Source: Candidatus Hermodarchaeota archaeon
Lineage (GTDB): Archaea > Asgardarchaeota > Hermodarchaeia > Hermodarchaeales > Hermodarchaeaceae
Direction: 5' to 3'
Assembly: GCA_016839365.1 (NCBI GenBank)
Contig: JAEOUH010000044.1
Span: 18,567 to 82,566, forward strand
DNA: 64,000 bases
Both the position numbers and the translations under genes were made by a program. Positions within the stretch are counted from its first letter, which is position 1, and every line of letters begins with the position of its first letter. Below are positions 15,419 through 61,399 of the stretch, in pieces. The notes beneath the pieces were generated by a model that saw nothing but the letters and a program-made list of their open reading frames with translations, ran no database searches and had not been told where the DNA came from.

Positions 15419-15564
15419 TGGTGGGCACGGCGGGATTCAAACCCGCGACCTCCGGCTAACCTAGGCTTCGCAAACGAATGTTCGGAGCGACTCCATATAA
15501 GGCATACACACCCCATGCAAAGTGCACGGCGGTTCGGCGCTCCATCAGGCTAAGCCACGTGCCC
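15419..15564 (-). tRNA. tRNA gene with about 69 nt of intervening sequence. Introns are probably multiple or non-canonical. The anticodon is unresolved. CCA is encoded.
   Basis: The reverse complement gives acceptor GGGCACG/CGTGCCC, D-arm GCTT-AGCCTGATG-GAGC, T-arm GCGGG-TTTGAAT-CCCGC and 3' ACCA. An 86-nt middle region contains only 17 nt of mature anticodon arm. Confidence 0.6.
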
Positions 15565-31663: not shown

Positions 31664-33088
31664 ATGTCCATTCCTAATACTATATGGCTTAAGTGTCTGA
31701 AAGAAATTCGCCCAACCGAGTCTGATATTCAAGAATCATCCTTTGTTTTTGAAAAGGTACGCAAGGCTATTGAATTAGAAGCAGAAGATCGGAAAATCAC
31801 TGTTGCGTTTATTAATTTAGAAGGCTCGTCTGGTCGAAAACAGACACAGCTTCGTGGTTGGAAAGAGCTGGACATATTCGTCGGATTACCCGTGTCAATC
31901 TTATCGCACTCACTTGAAGACAAGAAAACTAGAAAACCCGTGATTCGTCGTTTGCTTAAAAAAATGGTGAAGGATATAGCTGTTAATGCTGCAAGAAGTG
32001 CGGGATCCAAAGAAGTCGAAATTGCTTATGCGGAGCATCCCTATGTGATAGCTCAAATTGATAATTATAAGGTTGATATCGTTTTTTGCTTCGATTTAAC
32101 CAAAGACTATATTATCAACAATGGTCCAATCACCGCCGTCGATCGGACGCCGCACCATTCCAATTTTGTGGATAAGCACCTTACCGTAGCCCAACGTGAT
32201 GATGTCCGTCTTCTCAAAGCCTTCTTTCACACAGCATATGTCTACGGGGATTCGAGTCCAGTTGGTCGGAGTGGATTTACGGGATTTAGTACTGAGATGC
32301 TAATCTTTCACACAAAAGCACTAGAACCAGCATTGGAATATTTGTCTCAATCAACACCACAACCACGCGATTTCTTCAATCGTGATGCCGATTCCTTGAA
32401 ACGAAAATTCCCTAACGATTTTTTCATCATCTCAGACCCAGTGGATCCGAACCGCAACATTGCCTCTAGTATTTCACAACGTGCCTACCGTTACACTAGC
32501 CACAAGTCACGCCAACTGTTACAGGACCCCTCTGAAGTATTCTTTGACAGGAGACCCATTCCCCAATTATCTGCGACGGAACTTGACTTGTTGGGCCCAA
32601 ACTACTTTGTCATCGAGTTCCATGATCAAACTGGGTGGCATTACACCAAAACCCGTGATAAACTCTATCGTTATTTCTCAAAGCTTGCACGTTTCCTCAA
32701 ACAGGAACCAACAGGAGAATCACGATTCGGATTCGTAGCCTTTGAAGAGCTTTTTCAAGGTGATATTTTCGCAGTTGCGCTTTACGTAGAAAGGGCGAAA
32801 GTGAGTCAATCGTATAGAAGAGCAGGACCTCAACAGAGCCATGTTGAAGGCGTTCACCAGTTCATAGAGAAACATCCTGAAGCCTTTTTGAAAAATGGTC
32901 GATATTATACTAAGATCCGAAGAACGTTCACATCGGCAGAAGCGACGCTTCGTTACTATTTATCAGAAAATCAACTCTCTTCGAAATTGCCAGTTATTGA
33001 AGTGTCTAGAACTGGCTCAACACAGATAGGAGCACAGGCATTATGGATTCTAACGAAAGCAGTATTGCCATTTATGACATTAACTTAA
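31664..33088 (+). CDS. cca: Archaeal class I CCA-adding enzyme (tRNA nucleotidyltransferase)
   Basis: 474 aa. NTase motif GSSGRKQTQLRGWKELDIFVGLP. Further matches: AEHPYV, AVDRTPHH and VRLLKAFF. Confidence 0.8.
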   Translation: MSIPNTIWLKCLKEIRPTESDIQESSFVFEKVRKAIELEAEDRKITVAFINLEGSSGRKQTQLRGWKELDIFVGLPVSILSHSLEDKKTRKPVIRRLLKKMVKDIAVNAARSAGSKEVEIAYAEHPYVIAQIDNYKVDIVFCFDLTKDYIINNGPITAVDRTPHHSNFVDKHLTVAQRDDVRLLKAFFHTAYVYGDSSPVGRSGFTGFSTEMLIFHTKALEPALEYLSQSTPQPRDFFNRDADSLKRKFPNDFFIISDPVDPNRNIASSISQRAYRYTSHKSRQLLQDPSEVFFDRRPIPQLSATELDLLGPNYFVIEFHDQTGWHYTKTRDKLYRYFSKLARFLKQEPTGESRFGFVAFEELFQGDIFAVALYVERAKVSQSYRRAGPQQSHVEGVHQFIEKHPEAFLKNGRYYTKIRRTFTSAEATLRYYLSENQLSSKLPVIEVSRTGSTQIGAQALWILTKAVLPFMTLT

Positions 33089-53821: not shown

Positions 53822-53921
53822 TGGAGCCTCGGGCGGGGATTGAACCCGCGACCAGCAGCTTTCTCGACAACATTTAGGTGTCGTCTACGAGGCTGTCGCT
53901 CTACCACTGAGCTACCGAGGC
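53822..53921 (-). tRNA. tRNA-Thr (anticodon CGU) with a 25-nt intron at the canonical 37/38 position. CCA is encoded.
   Basis: The reverse complement gives GCCTCGG-TA-GCTC-AGTGGTA-GAGC-G-ACAGC-CTCGTA[intron 53861..53885]A-GCTGC-TGGTC-GCGGG-TTCAATC-CCCGC-CCGAGGC-T-CCA. The anticodon is at 53887..53889. Confidence 0.7.
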
Positions 53922-55002: not shown

Positions 55003-55103
55003 TGGCGGGCTCGGGGGGATTTTCGGGTACATGTAAGAATCCTTTCGAACCCCCGACAATCGGGTTAAGAGCCCGACGCTCTGCCTGGCTAAGCTACGAG
55101 CCC
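55003..55103 (-). tRNA. tRNA-Lys (anticodon CUU) with a 24-nt insertion inside the T-loop. CCA is encoded.
   Basis: The reverse complement gives GGGCTCG-TA-GCTT-AGCCAGGCA-GAGC-G-TCGGG-CTCTTAA-CCCGA-TTGTC-GGGGG-TTCGA[insert 55021..55044]AT-CCCCC-CGAGCCC-G-CCA. The anticodon is at 55067..55069. The insert is flanked by a CGAAA repeat. Confidence 0.65.
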
Positions 55104-55198
55104 GTGGGTTGGCTGTTTTTCTTCTACTATTTTAAAACTTTCTGAAAAAGTGACGAGCCCCAATATTTTATAATTCGAAGTATACAAAGACGAACAGG

Positions 55199-55648
55199 AT
55201 GACGAAACAGCAGATTGTTATTGCGGGTACTTTTGACATTCTTCACCCAGGTCATATTTTTCTTATTACAGAAGCAGCAAAGCTTGGTGAAGTTACGGTC
55301 GTTATTGCCCGTGATGAAAATGTCGTCCATACCAAAGGGCATCCGGTCATTGTCCCTGAACGGCAACGTCTTTTCATGGTTCAAGCATTGAAAGGTGTCT
55401 CTAAGGCTGTTTTAGGAAACCTTGGTTCAGATTTTGTCAAAATCATTGAGGAGTTGAACCCCGATATTCTCATGCTTGGTCCGAATCAGGACATATCCAT
55501 GGAACAGGTGCAAAATCGGCTAAGAGAGAAAGGCTTGTCAACCCGTGTAATTCGATTAGAGGCGCTATTTGATGAATTCCCACTGAATAGCACGACTCGG
55601 ATTATTGAGAAGGCATTTTCAAATCAGAAAGATCGAATTTCACAGTGA
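55199..55648 (+). CDS. ribL: FAD synthase RibL-type nucleotidyltransferase (FMN adenylyltransferase)
   Basis: 149 aa. AGTFDILHPGH. VIARDE. VPERQR. LGPNQ. These parallel the archaeal RibL family, though archaeal PPAT is similar. Confidence 0.55.
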   Translation: MTKQQIVIAGTFDILHPGHIFLITEAAKLGEVTVVIARDENVVHTKGHPVIVPERQRLFMVQALKGVSKAVLGNLGSDFVKIIEELNPDILMLGPNQDISMEQVQNRLREKGLSTRVIRLEALFDEFPLNSTTRIIEKAFSNQKDRISQ

Positions 55649-56300
55649 TGATATCCTCATCATCGACATTGAGTTTTTCACGAAGATCTATGGGGGCGAT
55701 GATTTCAACAACATTTGGATGATGATGGGTGCGCTCAATCAACAAAATGGCGGCCTTCTGTTCACCATTTACCGTTGCAGGGTAACAGGTGACGGGTCCA
55801 AAGCTTCGACCTTCATTTGTAAAGCCTTGAATATGTATTCCAATAGTAGCTTTAAGTAATCGAAATTCGTTTACATCTGCTTCGGAGAGTAATTGGATGT
55901 TAAGGGTTCCCGGAAAAGGATTGTAGCCAAGAACCTTTCGAAACTGTTTTCGGTAACCTTCCAAACGGACATAATAGGCGCCCTCCCCTAACCCAGTAAA
56001 GACCCGCCCGCGGAAGCTCCTAAACCGTTTCTTGGTCATAACCATTTCGAGAATAGATCGGACTTTGGTTAACTCCACAATTCCCTTTTCTTCTATGCGG
56101 ATTAATTGCCCCCGCTTATTGAGAACCCGGCTAACCAATCCCATTCTTTCAAGAGTAGATAATCTTCGCGAAGCTGTTTGTTGACTAATCTTCATGAGCT
56201 CAGCTAGGCGCGAAGTTGACGTACGGATGTTTGTGGTGACAGCACCGAGTTGTGCCAGTGTTAATAGAGTAAACCAGAGTTGTTCCTTCAAGAGAATCAT
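55602..56300 (-). CDS. ribK: CTP-dependent riboflavin kinase fused to an N-terminal HTH domain
   Basis: 232 aa. N-terminal wHTH ISQQTASRRLSTLERMGLV. The C-terminal GRVFTGLGEGAYYV...FPGTLNIQL matches archaeal RibK. Confidence 0.75.
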   Translation of the reverse strand: MILLKEQLWFTLLTLAQLGAVTTNIRTSTSRLAELMKISQQTASRRLSTLERMGLVSRVLNKRGQLIRIEEKGIVELTKVRSILEMVMTKKRFRSFRGRVFTGLGEGAYYVRLEGYRKQFRKVLGYNPFPGTLNIQLLSEADVNEFRLLKATIGIHIQGFTNEGRSFGPVTCYPATVNGEQKAAILLIERTHHHPNVVEIIAPIDLREKLNVDDEDIITVKFDLSDLKMPSQ

Positions 56301-57028
56301 ACCCTCTTTTTTAGTTTCAGGCGTTCTTTGGTTGCCATCTGATGTGCTAGTCGCGTCGGTTCAGGAAGTCGATACCGGGTAATGCATTTTTGCGTTATTT
56401 TGACAGCGGTTGCAAGTGAAATGCGATGCCCAACACTGATATAAATGGGATGGCACCCCGGCCTTGAAACTATCCTTGCGCCAATTACTTCGTCATCGAG
56501 AGTGAGGGTTTCGAACGGTGGAGAATCATATTGAATTATCCCACATAGAAGGCTTTTGGCTACTCCAATAGTGGGCACATTCCTTAAGATTCCGAAATGA
56601 CTTGCGGCACCTAGTTTTCGTGGGTGTGCCCTTCCGTGTGCATCAACGAAACAAAGGTCGGGTTTTATGGAGAGAGCAGTATAGGCTAAGGAAAGGGGAG
56701 GATATTCTCGAAAGGAGAGGAATGTAGGGATATAAGGAACAGTAGACTTCGTGTACACTATTTGATGCTCAATTGGTGTTAAGCCCGGAAAATTTAGCAA
56801 GACAGCTACTCCAATCGCAGTTTGGTTATAGTAGGAGACATCTAATCCACACACGGTTCGTGGGGGATTGAGGAATTCATCTTCTTCAATAAAGCGGTCA
56901 ACCAAAATTCGCTGCACTTGCTGGGCCCTCAAAGTTGGGAATTTGGTTGGCAAGAGTGGTGCCACTTCCTTATTTCTCAAGCGAATTTTGTAAAGTGGTA
57001 ATTCCTTCAAGTAGGCGGCGGTTTTCAA
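56297..57028 (-). CDS. nfi: Endonuclease V
   Basis: 243 aa. CGLDVSY. AIGVAVLL. YIPTFLSFREYPPL. FVDAHGRAHPR. IGVAKS. Confidence 0.8.
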   Translation of the reverse strand: MKTAAYLKELPLYKIRLRNKEVAPLLPTKFPTLRAQQVQRILVDRFIEEDEFLNPPRTVCGLDVSYYNQTAIGVAVLLNFPGLTPIEHQIVYTKSTVPYIPTFLSFREYPPLSLAYTALSIKPDLCFVDAHGRAHPRKLGAASHFGILRNVPTIGVAKSLLCGIIQYDSPPFETLTLDDEVIGARIVSRPGCHPIYISVGHRISLATAVKITQKCITRYRLPEPTRLAHQMATKERLKLKKRV

Positions 57029-57599
57029 TGGCCGTACTTAGATCAGCACGAGTCCGTTCAATAAGCCCACGAGCAACATCTGTTTTTCTTCGAATCCCTG
57101 GTGTTAACCCGCGTGGAAAATCGAATGTGATTAGGGTTGCATAGACCTCTTCCATTTGCGCAAATGCTCTTTTGGCCTCATCCAGGTTATCATTTGTCAA
57201 GGAATCAATCGAATACCTTCGGAGTTCACCAACATAATCTCCCAGCCCTTGAAGATAACCGATATCTGTTACACCAATTTTTTCTGGACTAGGAATCCTT
57301 TCTTTGAGACGAAATGCAAGGAACAACGCTGCTTCAGCCACTTCAGCTTCAGCGTCCTGTACTAACCCAACAACAGGAAGTTGGCTGAGCTTCTTAAGAT
57401 GCGTTTGAGCCGACCTTAATAGGGACTTGGCCGTTTTAATTGATTCCCCAGCCTTTGACATATCTCCCTGGTGAATTGCAGAAATCGCTTCACGTGTGAC
57501 TTTTAACACCTTATGCATCTCATTAATGAGAAGATCACGGGATTCATTTTGTGTGGCTAGATTTGCATAAATTGCATCGGTTATTTCTTTGAGGCTCAT
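56970..57599 (-). CDS. Translin-family protein
   Basis: 209 aa, all helical. The C-terminal region (YLQGLGDYVGELRR) is like translin/TRAX. Confidence 0.55.
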   Translation of the reverse strand: MSLKEITDAIYANLATQNESRDLLINEMHKVLKVTREAISAIHQGDMSKAGESIKTAKSLLRSAQTHLKKLSQLPVVGLVQDAEAEVAEAALFLAFRLKERIPSPEKIGVTDIGYLQGLGDYVGELRRYSIDSLTNDNLDEAKRAFAQMEEVYATLITFDFPRGLTPGIRRKTDVARGLIERTRADLSTAIENRRLLEGITTLQNSLEK

Positions 57600-57665
57600 A
57601 TTTGACCGCTCCTGAGCTCTGGTTTGGCCGTATGTGGGTGCTGTGAAAACAGAATACTTAAATGA

Positions 57666-58622
57666 TTGGCTCTAAGTGAACCCTCGGTTGGTCTTGTGGT
57701 TTCTACTGATTTAGCGAAGATTTACCGTCGACAGCATTATCGTTTCATTGGTAGGAATAGTGTTTTGAAGAAATGTTATCATCTTCACAAGGCGTTGACC
57801 CAGCAACGACCCTGTTATAAACAGACCTTCTATGGTTCAATAATCACTCATCGGTGTATGCAGCTTTCTCCAACTTTACAATGTACACAATCATGTCAAT
57901 TCTGTTGGCGAACGATGCCAGGAGATGAAGGATTCCCGGGTCACCAGCAAAGGGAGATACCCGATGAGCCTTCGGAAATACTAGATAATGCGGTCATTGA
58001 GCAACGAAAAATCCTCGACGGGTACAATCCCGTGTGCCACCCCAGGGTAATCCCAAAGATGTATGAAGAGGCTCGGAATCCGCGACATGTAGCAATCAGC
58101 CTAGTTGGGGAACCAACAGGTTATGAACGTCTTTCCGAATTGATTGAAGAATGCCGACATCGTAACTGGACTAGTTATCTTGTTAGTAATGGCACCAACC
58201 CACAAGTGCTCGAACAGATTGAAGAACCAACCCAGTTATACATCTCGTTTGTGGCCCCTGATAAGAAAATTCACCAAGAACTTTGTCGGCCTTCGATACC
58301 CAATGCCTGGGAGCGGTTGCAAACGTCACTTAATCTCCTTTCATCGTTTTCTTGCCCAACCGTGATTCGAATGACTCTCGTTGCAGATCGAAACATGCAC
58401 TGCATATCAAAGTATGCAGCAACACTCAATTCAGCTCAGCCCGATTATATTGAATGCAAAGCCTACATGCACGTCGGTTCATCAATGCAACGACTTTCAC
58501 GGGAGAATATGCCAAGTATGAATGAAATTCGAGACTTTGCTGCAAAATTAGCTAATGACACTGATTACGTGGTTATGAACGAGGACACAGTTAGTCGTGT
58601 AGTTCTCCTCGGGAGAGAATGA
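57666..58622 (+). CDS. taw1: tRNA 4-demethylwyosine synthase (TYW1/Taw1) radical SAM enzyme
   Basis: THRCMQLSPTLQCTQSCQFCWR carries the CxxxCxxC cluster. ISLVGEP. The overall order parallels archaeal Taw1. Confidence 0.8.
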   Translation: MALSEPSVGLVVSTDLAKIYRRQHYRFIGRNSVLKKCYHLHKALTQQRPCYKQTFYGSIITHRCMQLSPTLQCTQSCQFCWRTMPGDEGFPGHQQREIPDEPSEILDNAVIEQRKILDGYNPVCHPRVIPKMYEEARNPRHVAISLVGEPTGYERLSELIEECRHRNWTSYLVSNGTNPQVLEQIEEPTQLYISFVAPDKKIHQELCRPSIPNAWERLQTSLNLLSSFSCPTVIRMTLVADRNMHCISKYAATLNSAQPDYIECKAYMHVGSSMQRLSRENMPSMNEIRDFAAKLANDTDYVVMNEDTVSRVVLLGRE

Positions 58623-58633
58623 AAGAGGGCTTG

Positions 58634-59254
58634 TTATTCGGCTAAGGGAATGTGTTTTGATTCCATGCCATCAGCTGAGACTACGAGAAGATCAATTCCA
58701 TCACCCGACATCGCATCTCGGCGTGTCGCAGATCGGATAGCTTTGACAGCAAGATTCATTGCTTCGTCTTTTGATAAACCGGCTTTGTAGTTGGCTTCGA
58801 GCACACCAAGGACTAGTGAGGTGGCTGTGCCAACAGCCGCGTATTTTTCTTCTATGAGTGAGCCTGCAAGATCGAGGCTGTATAGGTGAGTGCCAGTTTG
58901 ATCGACTCCACCGATGAGGGTCTGTGTCAGATAGGGCATGTATTTGCGACTGAAAAGAATGTTTGAAAGTAACTGTGCCGCCGCGTTTACTGTGATTGAT
59001 CGCCGATTTTCTAGTTCAAAAAGGTTGGATTCAGCCGTTAGGAAAGATGAAAGCATTTGGTAGTCGCCACTGACTCCCGCACTGCCAACGATGATGGTGT
59101 CAGTTATGGGGAAGACTTTCTTTCCTGTTTTGCTTACTACGGTATAACCCCAAAGGACCCGTTTTTCGGCTCCAATTACTACGCCATTTTCAAATGTGAT
59201 GCCAACGGTGGCGGCACCGAAGAATGGCGTTAAATCATCAGATTGACCGCTCAT
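58634..59254 (-). CDS. psmB: Proteasome beta-type subunit, apparently lacking the Thr1 nucleophile
   Basis: 206 aa Ntn-hydrolase beta fold. The propeptide junction reads FFG|AATVGI where active subunits read G|TTTVG. Lys33-equivalent (SKTGKK) and GSAG are present. Confidence 0.65.
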   Translation of the reverse strand: MSGQSDDLTPFFGAATVGITFENGVVIGAEKRVLWGYTVVSKTGKKVFPITDTIIVGSAGVSGDYQMLSSFLTAESNLFELENRRSITVNAAAQLLSNILFSRKYMPYLTQTLIGGVDQTGTHLYSLDLAGSLIEEKYAAVGTATSLVLGVLEANYKAGLSKDEAMNLAVKAIRSATRRDAMSGDGIDLLVVSADGMESKHIPLAE

Positions 59255-60372
59255 TTTTGATTACCTTATCAGCTTACGTAGGGAAGCAGTTAAAAAATCT
59301 TTGTGACTTGCTTCATGTTAGAGTTGTGAGTTCAGTGAACCCGTTCACCGGTTTAAAGTATATTCCAAACACCAAAGAGTTACTCGATGTTGCTTTTGCT
59401 CGTGCATCGAAAATTACCCTTCCTAAATCAAGAAAGCCTCCCAAGGTCAGAGCACGAGAGAAAGAAATTGCTAAATTGAATAAGGTCGATGACACCCTCA
59501 CAACTAGGCTCGAAGAGGTCGTCAAGCGGTTCCCCAATTTTGATAATATCCATCCCTTCTACCGTACTCTCGCAGACACTGTGGTAACCATTGATGAAAT
59601 CCGCCAGGCTCTAGCCTCCGTTACCTCAGCGGTTCGAGTCATCAGAAGCATTATCAAGGAGGCAAACCGTAATCTGCGAAGAGCTACAACCCCTACTGAG
59701 GCACGCAGTATAAGAGTCGCAGCCTATGGTCGGATTTCATCAGTAATTCGAAGAATCGATTCTCGTCTGATGGTTATCCGAAAAGCCGCCTTGGAATATC
59801 GCCGGTTTCCATCAATCGATCTTAGGCTTCCTGTAGTAGTAATCGCGGGATTTCCCAATGTGGGAAAAAGCTCGTTCGTAGCTGTTCTTTCTTCAGCTAA
59901 ACCTGAAGTTGCCGAATATCCTTTTACAACCAAGAAAATTAGTGTGGGTCACATTCAATTGGATTCTGCAGGAGGCCAAATTCTTGATGTACCTGGTCTC
60001 CTTGACCGACCTATGAAAGATCGAAACCCAATTGAACAACGAGCAATAGCTGCGATTCAGTATTTAGCAGATGTAATTATATTCCTGATAGATCCCACCT
60101 TAACCTGTGGGTATGACCTTTCAAGCCAGGTGGCATTGTACAACGAAATCAGAAGGACATTTTCAGAAATAGAAATCTTCCCAGTTATCAATAAGAAGGA
60201 TATCGCCTCAGCCAAAGAAATCCAACGCGCAAAGAATATGATGGATATTAAAGGAATTCCGGTTATCAGCACCCTAACCGAAGAAGGGGTCGAGCAGGTT
60301 TTTCAAGACGTTATTTCAGGAGCGGAGAGCGTTAACAGGAAGTTGCGTGACCTTCAAGTCCAATCCCTGTAA
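59224..60372 (+). CDS. Nog1-family GTPase
   Basis: 382 aa. NOG1 N-domain, then G1 GFPNVGKSS, G2 FTTK, G3 DVPG, G4 NKKD. The start may be downstream; the ATG overlaps the psmB 5' end. Confidence 0.7.
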   Translation: MALNHQIDRSFLITLSAYVGKQLKNLCDLLHVRVVSSVNPFTGLKYIPNTKELLDVAFARASKITLPKSRKPPKVRAREKEIAKLNKVDDTLTTRLEEVVKRFPNFDNIHPFYRTLADTVVTIDEIRQALASVTSAVRVIRSIIKEANRNLRRATTPTEARSIRVAAYGRISSVIRRIDSRLMVIRKAALEYRRFPSIDLRLPVVVIAGFPNVGKSSFVAVLSSAKPEVAEYPFTTKKISVGHIQLDSAGGQILDVPGLLDRPMKDRNPIEQRAIAAIQYLADVIIFLIDPTLTCGYDLSSQVALYNEIRRTFSEIEIFPVINKKDIASAKEIQRAKNMMDIKGIPVISTLTEEGVEQVFQDVISGAESVNRKLRDLQVQSL

Positions 60373-61399
60373 CTGAAATTGTAGCTGGAGAATCTATTTT
60401 TCCCTTGACGTCAAATTTGGCTTCTAAAAACTGTTCCACCACATGGATGTTTGTTACTACATGCTTTGTAAGAGTCGTAACTGAAATTGATGAGAGTCCC
60501 TCTGCGAGGGCTAAGTAAGGAACGAGCATATCTGCCTGATATCGGTCAACAGGTGCACGGGTATCTAGTTCCTTACGAAGAGAGAAGGCAGCATTTTGTC
60601 CTACTTTTTCAGCTTTCAGTCCCTGACGCCCCATTGCATCAGATCCTATGAGACGAACTCCATTGTTTGTAGCCTTGAGAGAAATTCCACTTCCCGGAGA
60701 GCGGGTGTTTTCATCGTGTTCAATCTCGATTTTTTGGACTTGATATCTATTTTCTATTAGGGTATTGTATGCAGCCTGAGCTTGCCTTTCTGCTACGTGT
60801 CGGGGAAGCATTCCACAGTGTGAGATACCAGTAATAACAGGAGGTTCCCTGACTCTGTCGAGCGTTAATGGTGTCAGTCTATGGACAGGTGATAAGGTTG
60901 CATCTACTCGTCCCCCTCCACGGGGGTAATATCCTCGCTTTTTGGTGTCGATAAAAGCTCTATATCCCATTTGTTCAAGTCTTGGGAGGAGAACTGTGTG
61001 GAGGTAATCAATTGGAGGGCTCCAGGCCACATTCGTTCCTCCAATGAGGGTAGCGGAGACTGAACGTTCACAAAAGGGTGCAACAATCATGACTGTTTGA
61101 AGAACGAGAGTGATTGCTCCTGCAGTCCCGATGTCTACGGAAATTTCTCCTCCTTGGCGATTTTGGGGGATAAACTCGATTCGATCAGACCCAACGTGGG
61201 TGCCTTTTACTGCAGCGTTGGTGAGGTTCTTTACTGCCAGAATTCCATGGAGGTGTTGTGGACGTAATCCGGGCGTTTTTCGCTTCGCTCGGATTTTCTT
61301 GACAATGACAGGTTCACCCAAAACTGCGGCAAAAGCGATAGCCGAACGAACAATTTGCCCTCCTCCTTCTAATACGGACCCATCAATTTCGACAACCAT
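60332..61399 (-). CDS. rtcA: RNA 3'-terminal phosphate cyclase
   Basis: 355 aa. GSVLEGGGQIVRSAIAFAAVLGEPV. HLHG-containing region around the active-site His. Confidence 0.85.
   Translation of the reverse strand: MVVEIDGSVLEGGGQIVRSAIAFAAVLGEPVIVKKIRAKRKTPGLRPQHLHGILAVKNLTNAAVKGTHVGSDRIEFIPQNRQGGEISVDIGTAGAITLVLQTVMIVAPFCERSVSATLIGGTNVAWSPPIDYLHTVLLPRLEQMGYRAFIDTKKRGYYPRGGGRVDATLSPVHRLTPLTLDRVREPPVITGISHCGMLPRHVAERQAQAAYNTLIENRYQVQKIEIEHDENTRSPGSGISLKATNNGVRLIGSDAMGRQGLKAEKVGQNAAFSLRKELDTRAPVDRYQADMLVPYLALAEGLSSISVTTLTKHVVTNIHVVEQFLEAKFDVKGKIDSPATISVTGIGLEGHATSC

Follow-up and report, generated by a model that had tools for sequence, protein, structure and literature searches.

A T-loop intron of bulge-helix-bulge type in the tRNA-Lys(CUU) gene of an Asgard archaeon

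What is already known of archaeal tRNA introns that lie outside the anticodon loop? Bulge-helix-bulge (BHB) introns in D-loops, T-loops and acceptor stems have been described in Archaea (PMC3241643, PMC6379350), and an intron at position 59/60 was reported in ARMAN-2 in 2011 (PMC3239211). With tRNAscan-SE 2.0, which searches for non-canonical introns by default, 673 of 2206 introns in 217 archaeal genomes were non-canonical (PMC8450103). For the Asgard archaea, Valentin-Alvarado et al. 2024 (PMC11291895) report introns in 92-95% of the tRNA genes of Atabeyarchaeia and Freyarchaeia, often non-canonical and often several to a gene, and Kaneta et al. 2018 (PMC5829648) describe Asgard EndA as an (alpha-beta)2 enzyme with an L1 loop, including that of a Thorarchaeota SMTZ1 genome. 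The literature thus already contains both the 59/60 site and an abundance of non-canonical tRNA introns in Asgard archaea, and the tRNA-Lys(CUU) gene described here is a new example.

The tRNA-Lys(CUU) gene and its genomic setting

The gene occupies positions 55003..55103 on the minus strand of the window, the whole stretch of 64,000 nucleotides that was analysed, and is read from the sequence as a 101-nt precursor with an encoded CCA. The precursor RNA reads GGGCUCG UA GCUU AGCCAGGCA GAGC G UCGGG CUCUUAA CCCGA, and after CCCGA it continues as UUGUC GGGGG UUCGAAAGGAUUCUUACAUGUACCCGAAAAU CCCCC CGAGCCC G CCA, in which UUCGAAAGGAUUCUUACAUGUACCCGAAAAU is a T-loop of 31 nt compared with the usual 7. 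The arms that the sequence-only reading had drawn are all present, with a 7-bp acceptor, a D-arm, the anticodon arm UCGGG-CUCUUAA-CCCGA, the T-stem GGGGG/CCCCC and the CCA end, and the 31-nt T-loop that it had noticed is confirmed. The anticodon CUU lies at RNA nucleotides 35-37 (55067..55069, minus strand), both in the sequence and in the ARAGORN call after splicing. The cleavage rule applied to the fold assigns to the 5' exon RNA nucleotides 1-60 (55044..55103, minus strand), that is, the acceptor 5' strand, the D-arm, the anticodon arm, the variable loop, the T-stem 5' strand and T-loop nucleotides 54-59 (UUCGAA). The 24-nt intron AGGAUUCUUACAUGUACCCGAAAA, RNA nucleotides 61-84 (55020..55043, minus strand), is placed at tRNA position 59/60 by the minimum free energy (MFE) fold, the BHB finder and the orthologues, and the 3' exon, RNA nucleotides 85-101 (55003..55019, minus strand), comprises U60, CCCCC, CGAGCCC, G73 and CCA according to the sequence, in-silico splicing and the fold. 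We put at about 90% the probability that this is a real, functional tRNA-Lys(CUU) gene carrying a 24-nt archaeal intron of the protein-spliced type in its T-loop at 59/60.

The gene lies 3 nt past the stop codon of the oppositely oriented thiL, and its 5' end is separated by 95 nt from the start codon of a ribL-type cytidylyltransferase gene that is transcribed divergently. At -40 to -25 from the mature 5' end stands the block AGAAAG-TTTTAAAATA (55128..55143, minus strand), which is found upstream of all versions of the tRNA-Lys gene at the same position. It fits an archaeal BRE/TATA promoter and probably functions as one, to judge from its conserved position and sequence. Invariance of the exons and conservation of this promoter-like block together suggest that the tRNA would accept lysine and serve in translation.

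The host is an Asgard archaeon of Thor/Hermod (Thorarchaeota) type. The thermosome encoded 3 kb from the tRNA-Lys gene shares 90-100% identity with proteins from genomes that are labelled as Thorarchaeota, Hermodarchaeota or Promethearchaeota, all of which belong to the Asgard kingdom Promethearchaeati, and the window encodes the Asgard-typical Roadblock/LC7 proteins, Arf- and Ras-type GTPases and profilin. Two short metagenome contigs match the window at 99.9% identity and contig SMTZ1_10000216 matches it at ~98%, and JGI 3300009509 and run DRR851379 also hold near-identical sequences (about 98-99.9% for the whole set). The related contigs that were fetched share the gene order, with thermosome, rpoK, thiL, tRNA, ribL, riboflavin kinase, endonuclease V and onward. 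Close to the tRNA-Lys gene, an RNA-related run at 55602..61399 encodes endonuclease V, a translin-like protein, a wyosine-synthesis radical-SAM enzyme (Taw1/Tyw1-like), a NOG1 GTPase and RtcA, the RNA 3'-phosphate cyclase, and the Pfam domains of the orthologues indicate that this run of neighbours is conserved. A CCA-adding enzyme is encoded at 31664..33088, although the tRNA-Lys gene encodes its own CCA. EndA and RtcB genes were absent from the 33 of 63 window ORFs that were scanned.

The expectation, formed from the sequence alone, that tRNA finders would miss this gene holds for the two tools that were run. With default settings ARAGORN called no tRNA anywhere in the window, and with its intron options it called the two other tRNA genes of the window and passed over tRNA-Lys at 55003..55103. 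The Rfam tRNA model gave the unspliced gene 22.2 bits, under its gathering score of 29, and at an E-value threshold it aligned only the 5' two thirds. The annotation itself is the main value of the finding: without this tRNA-Lys(CUU) gene, the genome appears short of a tRNA for AAG(Lys). Kaneta et al. 2018 (PMC5829648) point out that the tRNA sets predicted for Asgard genomes are incomplete and urge manual curation.

All three tRNA genes in the window contain introns, four in total, two of them non-canonical. The tRNA-Thr(CGU) gene (53825..53921, minus strand; 57 bits with Rfam) has a canonical 25-nt BHB intron at 37/38 with an outer helix of 4 bp and an inner helix of 6 bp; the 13-nt intron and 87-nt body proposed by ARAGORN are probably wrong. 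The third gene, 146 nt at 15419..15564 (minus strand), is called by ARAGORN as a tRNA-Met with a 49-nt intron, which leaves an implausible body of 97 nt, and a depth-3 motif search over 15419..15564, strict and then relaxed, returned no convincing tRNA. Parsed manually, it makes better sense as a tRNA-Ile(UAU) gene interrupted by two introns, one of 31 nt at about 29/30 (about 15504..15534, minus strand) with a relaxed motif that has no outer helix, and one of 38 nt at the canonical 37/38 site (about 15458..15495, minus strand). Removal of both leaves a clean 77-nt tRNA-Ile(UAU), and the gene lies 48 nt downstream of ileS (881 bits to TIGR00392). The middle exon GCCUUAUA is invariant in 5 metagenome contigs, and the interior of intron 1 varies with compensation. 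The 38-nt canonical intron is unusually conserved in five contigs (L088-L092) whose surrounding DNA is about 71-78% identical, in contrast with the fast-drifting intron 1. UAU is also the eukaryotic anticodon for the AUA codon, as pseudouridine-A-pseudouridine. Among archaea, tRNA-Ile(UAU) is rare, having been found in only 2 of 167 genomes in a 2018 survey that contained no Asgard genomes (PMC6000648).

The bulge-helix-bulge fold and the predicted spliced product

In the MFE fold of the whole precursor the acceptor, anticodon and T stems all form, and the T-loop region stacks the 5-bp T-stem, the helix UUCG:CGAA between bulges AAA and AAU, and a GG:CC helix; the T-arm alone folds identically. 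In the central 4-bp helix, the exon strand UUCG (tRNA nucleotides 54-57; 55046..55049, minus strand) pairs with the intron strand CGAA (55022..55025, minus strand), and both strands are invariant in 16 orthologues. The 5' bulge in the fold is A58-A59-A(i1) (55043..55045, minus strand), with the predicted cut after A59, and the 3' bulge is A-A-U60 (55019..55021, minus strand), with the predicted cut before U60. The inner helix h' and its loop (55026..55042, minus strand), drawn from the fold and from covariation among the orthologues, are weak in the source genome, with the pairs G62:C78 and G63:C77 followed, past a 1-nt bulge, by A64:U75 and U65:G74. The two 3-nt bulges around a 4-bp helix that characterize the archaeal BHB intron are found both in the whole precursor and in the T-arm alone, and each flanking helix has at least 2 bp, h being the 5-bp T-stem and h' the 2 bp plus the two pairs beyond the bulge. 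A BHB finder likewise reports a T-loop intron with an outer helix of 5 bp and an inner helix of 2 bp. As modeled, the motif is a strict hBHBh' (3-4-3) with a short inner helix. A relaxed motif (HBh', hBH or BHL), in which one bulge or one flanking helix is missing, had been expected from the sequence alone, and this expectation fails, as both bulges and both helices are present in the precursor fold.

Is this arrangement more than would be expected of any short insert? The inner-helix segment of the window's intron, folded alone, gives 0 kcal/mol, and the fold of the whole precursor is only moderately better than that of shuffled sequences (z = -1.9). When the insert is shuffled, a 4-bp helix in the correct register together with an inner helix of at least 2 bp arises in 0.28% of shuffles, and since the motif is this rare and is also conserved in 16 orthologues, the arrangement exceeds chance.

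In canonical 37/38 introns the cut falls after the second base of each bulge. Checked on the neighbouring tRNA-Thr(CGU), this rule removes 25 nt at 37/38 and leaves the loop CUCGUAA; applied to the tRNA-Lys precursor, it takes out RNA nucleotides 61-84 (window 55020..55043), with the cut at tRNA position 59/60. A run of A at the junction makes the products of cuts at 58/59 and 59/60 identical, so that deletions of 24 nt from RNA position 59, 60 or 61 onward all yield one 77-nt product, whose T-loop is UUCGAAU. The deletion of 55021..55044 proposed in the sequence-only reading is one of these three equivalents and does restore UUCGAAU; its placing of the intron at 58/59 is right as to the product, but the geometry of the motif moves the cuts to 59/60 and the intron to 55020..55043. 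ARAGORN calls the 77-nt spliced product as tRNA-Lys(ctt), so that excision in silico restores a canonical tRNA with a cloverleaf, the anticodon CUU and the T-loop UUCGAAU, and the tertiary nucleotides U8, A14, G18G19, U33, A37, G53:C61, U54U55C56 and A58 are all in place. The predicted exon junction reads ...GGGGGUUCGAA|UCCCCC... and that of a circular intron ...CGAAAA|AGGAUU.... The direct repeat CGAAA is present at RNA nucleotides 57-61 and 79-83, as had been observed from the letters, but it is no hallmark of intron acquisition: it follows from the palindrome UUCGAA, because pairing with UUCG requires the sequence CGAA in the intron, and the loop contains CGAA too.

By far the most probable fate of the precursor is protein-catalysed splicing. 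Transcription would begin from the TATA/BRE-like promoter about 25-40 nt upstream of the gene, and in the precursor the T-stem, the helix UUCG (nucleotides 54-57):CGAA, the two 3-nt bulges and the short inner helix would form the strict hBHBh' motif, which EndA would recognize independently of the remaining tRNA. EndA would then cut after the second base of each bulge and an RtcB-type ligase would join the exons, freeing the 24-nt intron, probably as a circle. The product would be a 77-nt tRNA with a canonical T-loop UUCGAAU and its encoded CCA, and the T-loop/D-loop elbow, presumably along with the T-loop modifications, would form only after splicing. The roles given here to EndA and RtcB are drawn by analogy from the literature on other Asgard genomes. 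The tRNA-Lys intron leaves the understanding of the splicing mechanism unchanged.

Conservation and turnover of the intron

Syntenic loci were obtained through thermosome homologues, and a genome scan added further species; an exact-protein look-up of ThiL produced no match. The resulting set consists of 17 distinct versions of the tRNA-Lys gene, 16 with the T-loop intron and one, L084, without it (the orthologous loci are L005-L012, L029, L042, L047, L048, L062, L077, L078, L080, L084 and L086). The gene lies between thiL and ribL, and the insert, 22-25 nt long, is at the same site in 16 of the 17 versions. Among the 16 intron-bearing orthologues the exon T-arm has a mean pairwise identity of 100%, as do the intron positions that the motif requires (the G at i2 after the 5' bulge, its C partner at i-7, and CGAA), whereas the other intron positions have a mean pairwise identity of 42% and a minimum of 17%. 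The flanking genes of the more distant relatives show 73-78% DNA identity. The motif has thus been kept while the remainder of the intron drifted.

Both helices and both bulges appear in the MFE fold of 14 of the 16 orthologues, and in the fifteenth, L029, both helices form with the 5' bulge paired. Several relatives have a strong inner helix where that of the window is weak, such as GAACGC/GCGUUC (L086) and AUCGU/ACGAU (L010). When the sequences are aligned, the helix is 80% paired, with three pairs that vary on both strands and a closing G:C pair that never varies, and none of 500 shuffles reaches the observed covariation score. The 1-nt bulge shifts, and one consensus inner-helix structure therefore fits only ~80% of cells, for which reason per-sequence folds were used as well. 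The covariation, which comes from a short inner helix and a MAFFT alignment whose register misfits some sequences, the 1-nt bulge switching sides, provides modest evidence for this helix. The T-stem and the central helix are invariant among the orthologues, and neither, therefore, contributes covariation evidence.

The exception, L084, whose thermosome is 87% identical, has a syntenic tRNA-Lys(CUU) gene without the T-loop intron and with the T-arm GCGGG-UUCAAAU-CCCGU. Its 7-nt loop shows, by comparison of the genes, the form that the mature T-loop would take. The T-loop intron is absent from L084 and an anticodon-loop intron is kept. An anticodon-loop intron of 18-20 nt is present in all orthologues except the species of the window and its nearest relative (L003/L004). 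As the other relatives have it, the L003/L004 lineage lost the canonical intron and kept the one in the T-loop, and since L084 retains only the anticodon-loop intron and L003/L004 only the T-loop intron, the losses occurred independently in different lineages. This is a clean case of intron turnover, in which the T-loop intron was kept despite flanking-gene identity of ~73-78% and was lost once. On a separate matter of labelling, the genome at L043 (JBHLQC010000005.1), labelled Candidatus Odinarchaeota, has a tRNA-Lys(CUU) with a T-loop intron that is 1 base from that of Hermodarchaeum yapensis (L032), and judged by this likeness the label may be wrong.

Could the 24 nucleotides be retained instead, to give a mature tRNA with a 31-nt T-loop or an extra hairpin as a peculiarity of the lineage? 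In favour of this reading, every close relative that was examined has the insert, but it is conserved only at the positions that the BHB motif needs, and an identity of 42% elsewhere and a length that varies from 22 to 25 nt would be unexpected in a functional part of a mature tRNA. The insert would also break the U54-A58 and G18/G19-U55/C56 contacts of the elbow, and the plain 7-nt loop of the L084 orthologue argues in the same direction, so that retention appears very unlikely. The failure of both ARAGORN and the Rfam model to call the gene is what might be seen with a decaying tRNA pseudogene that has suffered a random T-loop insertion. A pseudogene would scarcely keep its exons at 100% identity among relatives in which the DNA identity of the flanking genes is only 73-78%, together with a conserved promoter block and conserved synteny, and a random insert yields the in-register motif in only 0.28% of shuffles; we regard decay as extremely improbable.

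Integration commonly takes place in the 3' parts of tRNA genes, and the insert is flanked by a 5-nt direct repeat, which makes it conceivable that a mobile or integrating element left the insert as a scar, with CGAAA as the target-site duplication and the likeness to an intron a coincidence. The palindrome UUCGAA and the requirement for pairing, however, already account for the repeat, which is in any case not a clean duplication, two extra A following the second copy. At 24 nt the insert has no coding capacity, the orthologues have unrelated inner sequences and yet the same CGAA, and the same architecture recurs in unrelated tRNAs of many phyla. An element scar is therefore hardly credible, and a T-loop intron at 59/60, kept in 16 versions of the gene and missing from one, remains the preferred reading.

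59/60 introns across Archaea and comparison with known systems

How widespread is this architecture? A scan of 185,579 species-representative genomes with the pattern GGGGGTTCGAA-N(12-42)-CGAANN-TCCCCC returned 71 matches, compared with a chance expectation estimated at ~8 (596 Gb x 2 strands x 31 gap lengths / 4^21). Seven of the 71 are in contigs labelled as bacterial and have no inner helix, except L049, the insert of which is like those of Thermoplasmata. The 62 distinct archaeal inserts have a mean of 4.4 inner-helix pairs, against 1.15 in shuffles, and about 60 other archaeal tRNA genes share the T-loop architecture at 59/60. After in-silico splicing, the majority of matches are called as tRNAs that span the junction. 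By these calls the tRNA is Lys(CUU) in the Thor/Hermod group, Leu, Thr, Ser or Pro in other Asgard genomes, Arg in Methanomassiliicoccales and Aenigmatarchaeota, Lys, Glu, Arg or Ser in DPANN genomes and Ser in one Bathyarchaeota genome. About 25 species representatives of Thermoplasmata have the architecture mostly in Lys(UUU), with GC-rich introns of 35-39 nt and inner helices of up to 11 pairs (loci L019, L025, L026, L033, L040, L041, L052-L056, L058, L059, L063, L066-L068, L071, L075 and L079). Inserts at 59/60 were also seen in genomes labelled Methanosarcinales.

The pattern fixes a single T-arm sequence, and the true number of 59/60 introns must therefore be larger. T-loop introns had been taken in the sequence-only reading to be rare and known mainly from Thermoproteales and a few deep-branching lineages. 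They are less rare than that: about 60 matches to one restrictive pattern come from Asgard archaea, Thermoplasmata, DPANN, Bathyarchaeota and others, and introns at 59/60 occur in many archaeal phyla, more widely than had been assumed. The host here is of the Asgard Thor/Hermod type and does not belong to the Thermoproteales. The BHB-type intron in the T-loop that the same reading proposed is, on the other hand, supported by structure, in-silico splicing and comparative evidence.

Because the T-loop sequence UUCGAA is palindromic, an insert ending in CGAA automatically builds the 4-bp helix and the bulges against the T-stem. The 59/60 site could accordingly be viewed, quite tentatively and with the odds rather against it, as a recurrent, structurally predisposed hot spot of intron gain and retention across Archaea, and within such a reading the Lys(CUU) intron may be ancient in the Thor/Hermod clade. 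That the T-loop intron was kept where the 37/38 intron was lost is a hint of selection rather than of neutral persistence, and the intron might be selected, for example, for ordering T-loop modification after splicing or for disrupting an integration site.

The closest described intron, at 59/60 in ARMAN-2 (PMC3239211), is alike in its T-loop site, in the use of the T-stem as the outer helix and in the presumed EndA/ligase pathway. ARMAN-2 belongs to DPANN, whereas the host here is an Asgard archaeon, the tRNA is Lys-CUU with a single intron in the window's gene, and at least 16 related genomes share the Lys(CUU) intron. The multiple and non-canonical introns of Thermoproteales and other TACK archaea (Sugahara et al. 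2008, cited in PMC4033280 and PMC8450103) are similar: they too are short, of BHB type and placed away from the anticodon loop, and the EndA of their hosts has a specific loop that broadens its substrate range. The host here is not a crenarchaeon, and the motif is strict where theirs is relaxed; being strict, the tRNA-Lys motif is in principle cleavable by any archaeal EndA.

The intron-rich tRNA genes of Asgard archaea (PMC11291895, PMC5829648) are those of the same superphylum, and the window, with introns in 3 of 3 tRNA genes and 4 in total, resembles them. The accessible text of these two papers does not describe a Lys(CUU) intron at 59/60 or its conservation in the Thor/Hermod group. With the canonical archaeal intron at 37/38, which the tRNA-Lys orthologues also carry (18-20 nt), the T-loop intron shares an identical geometry of 3-nt bulge, 4-bp helix and 3-nt bulge and the same cleavage rule. 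The difference is one of location: an intron in the T-loop blocks the D-loop/T-loop elbow before splicing.
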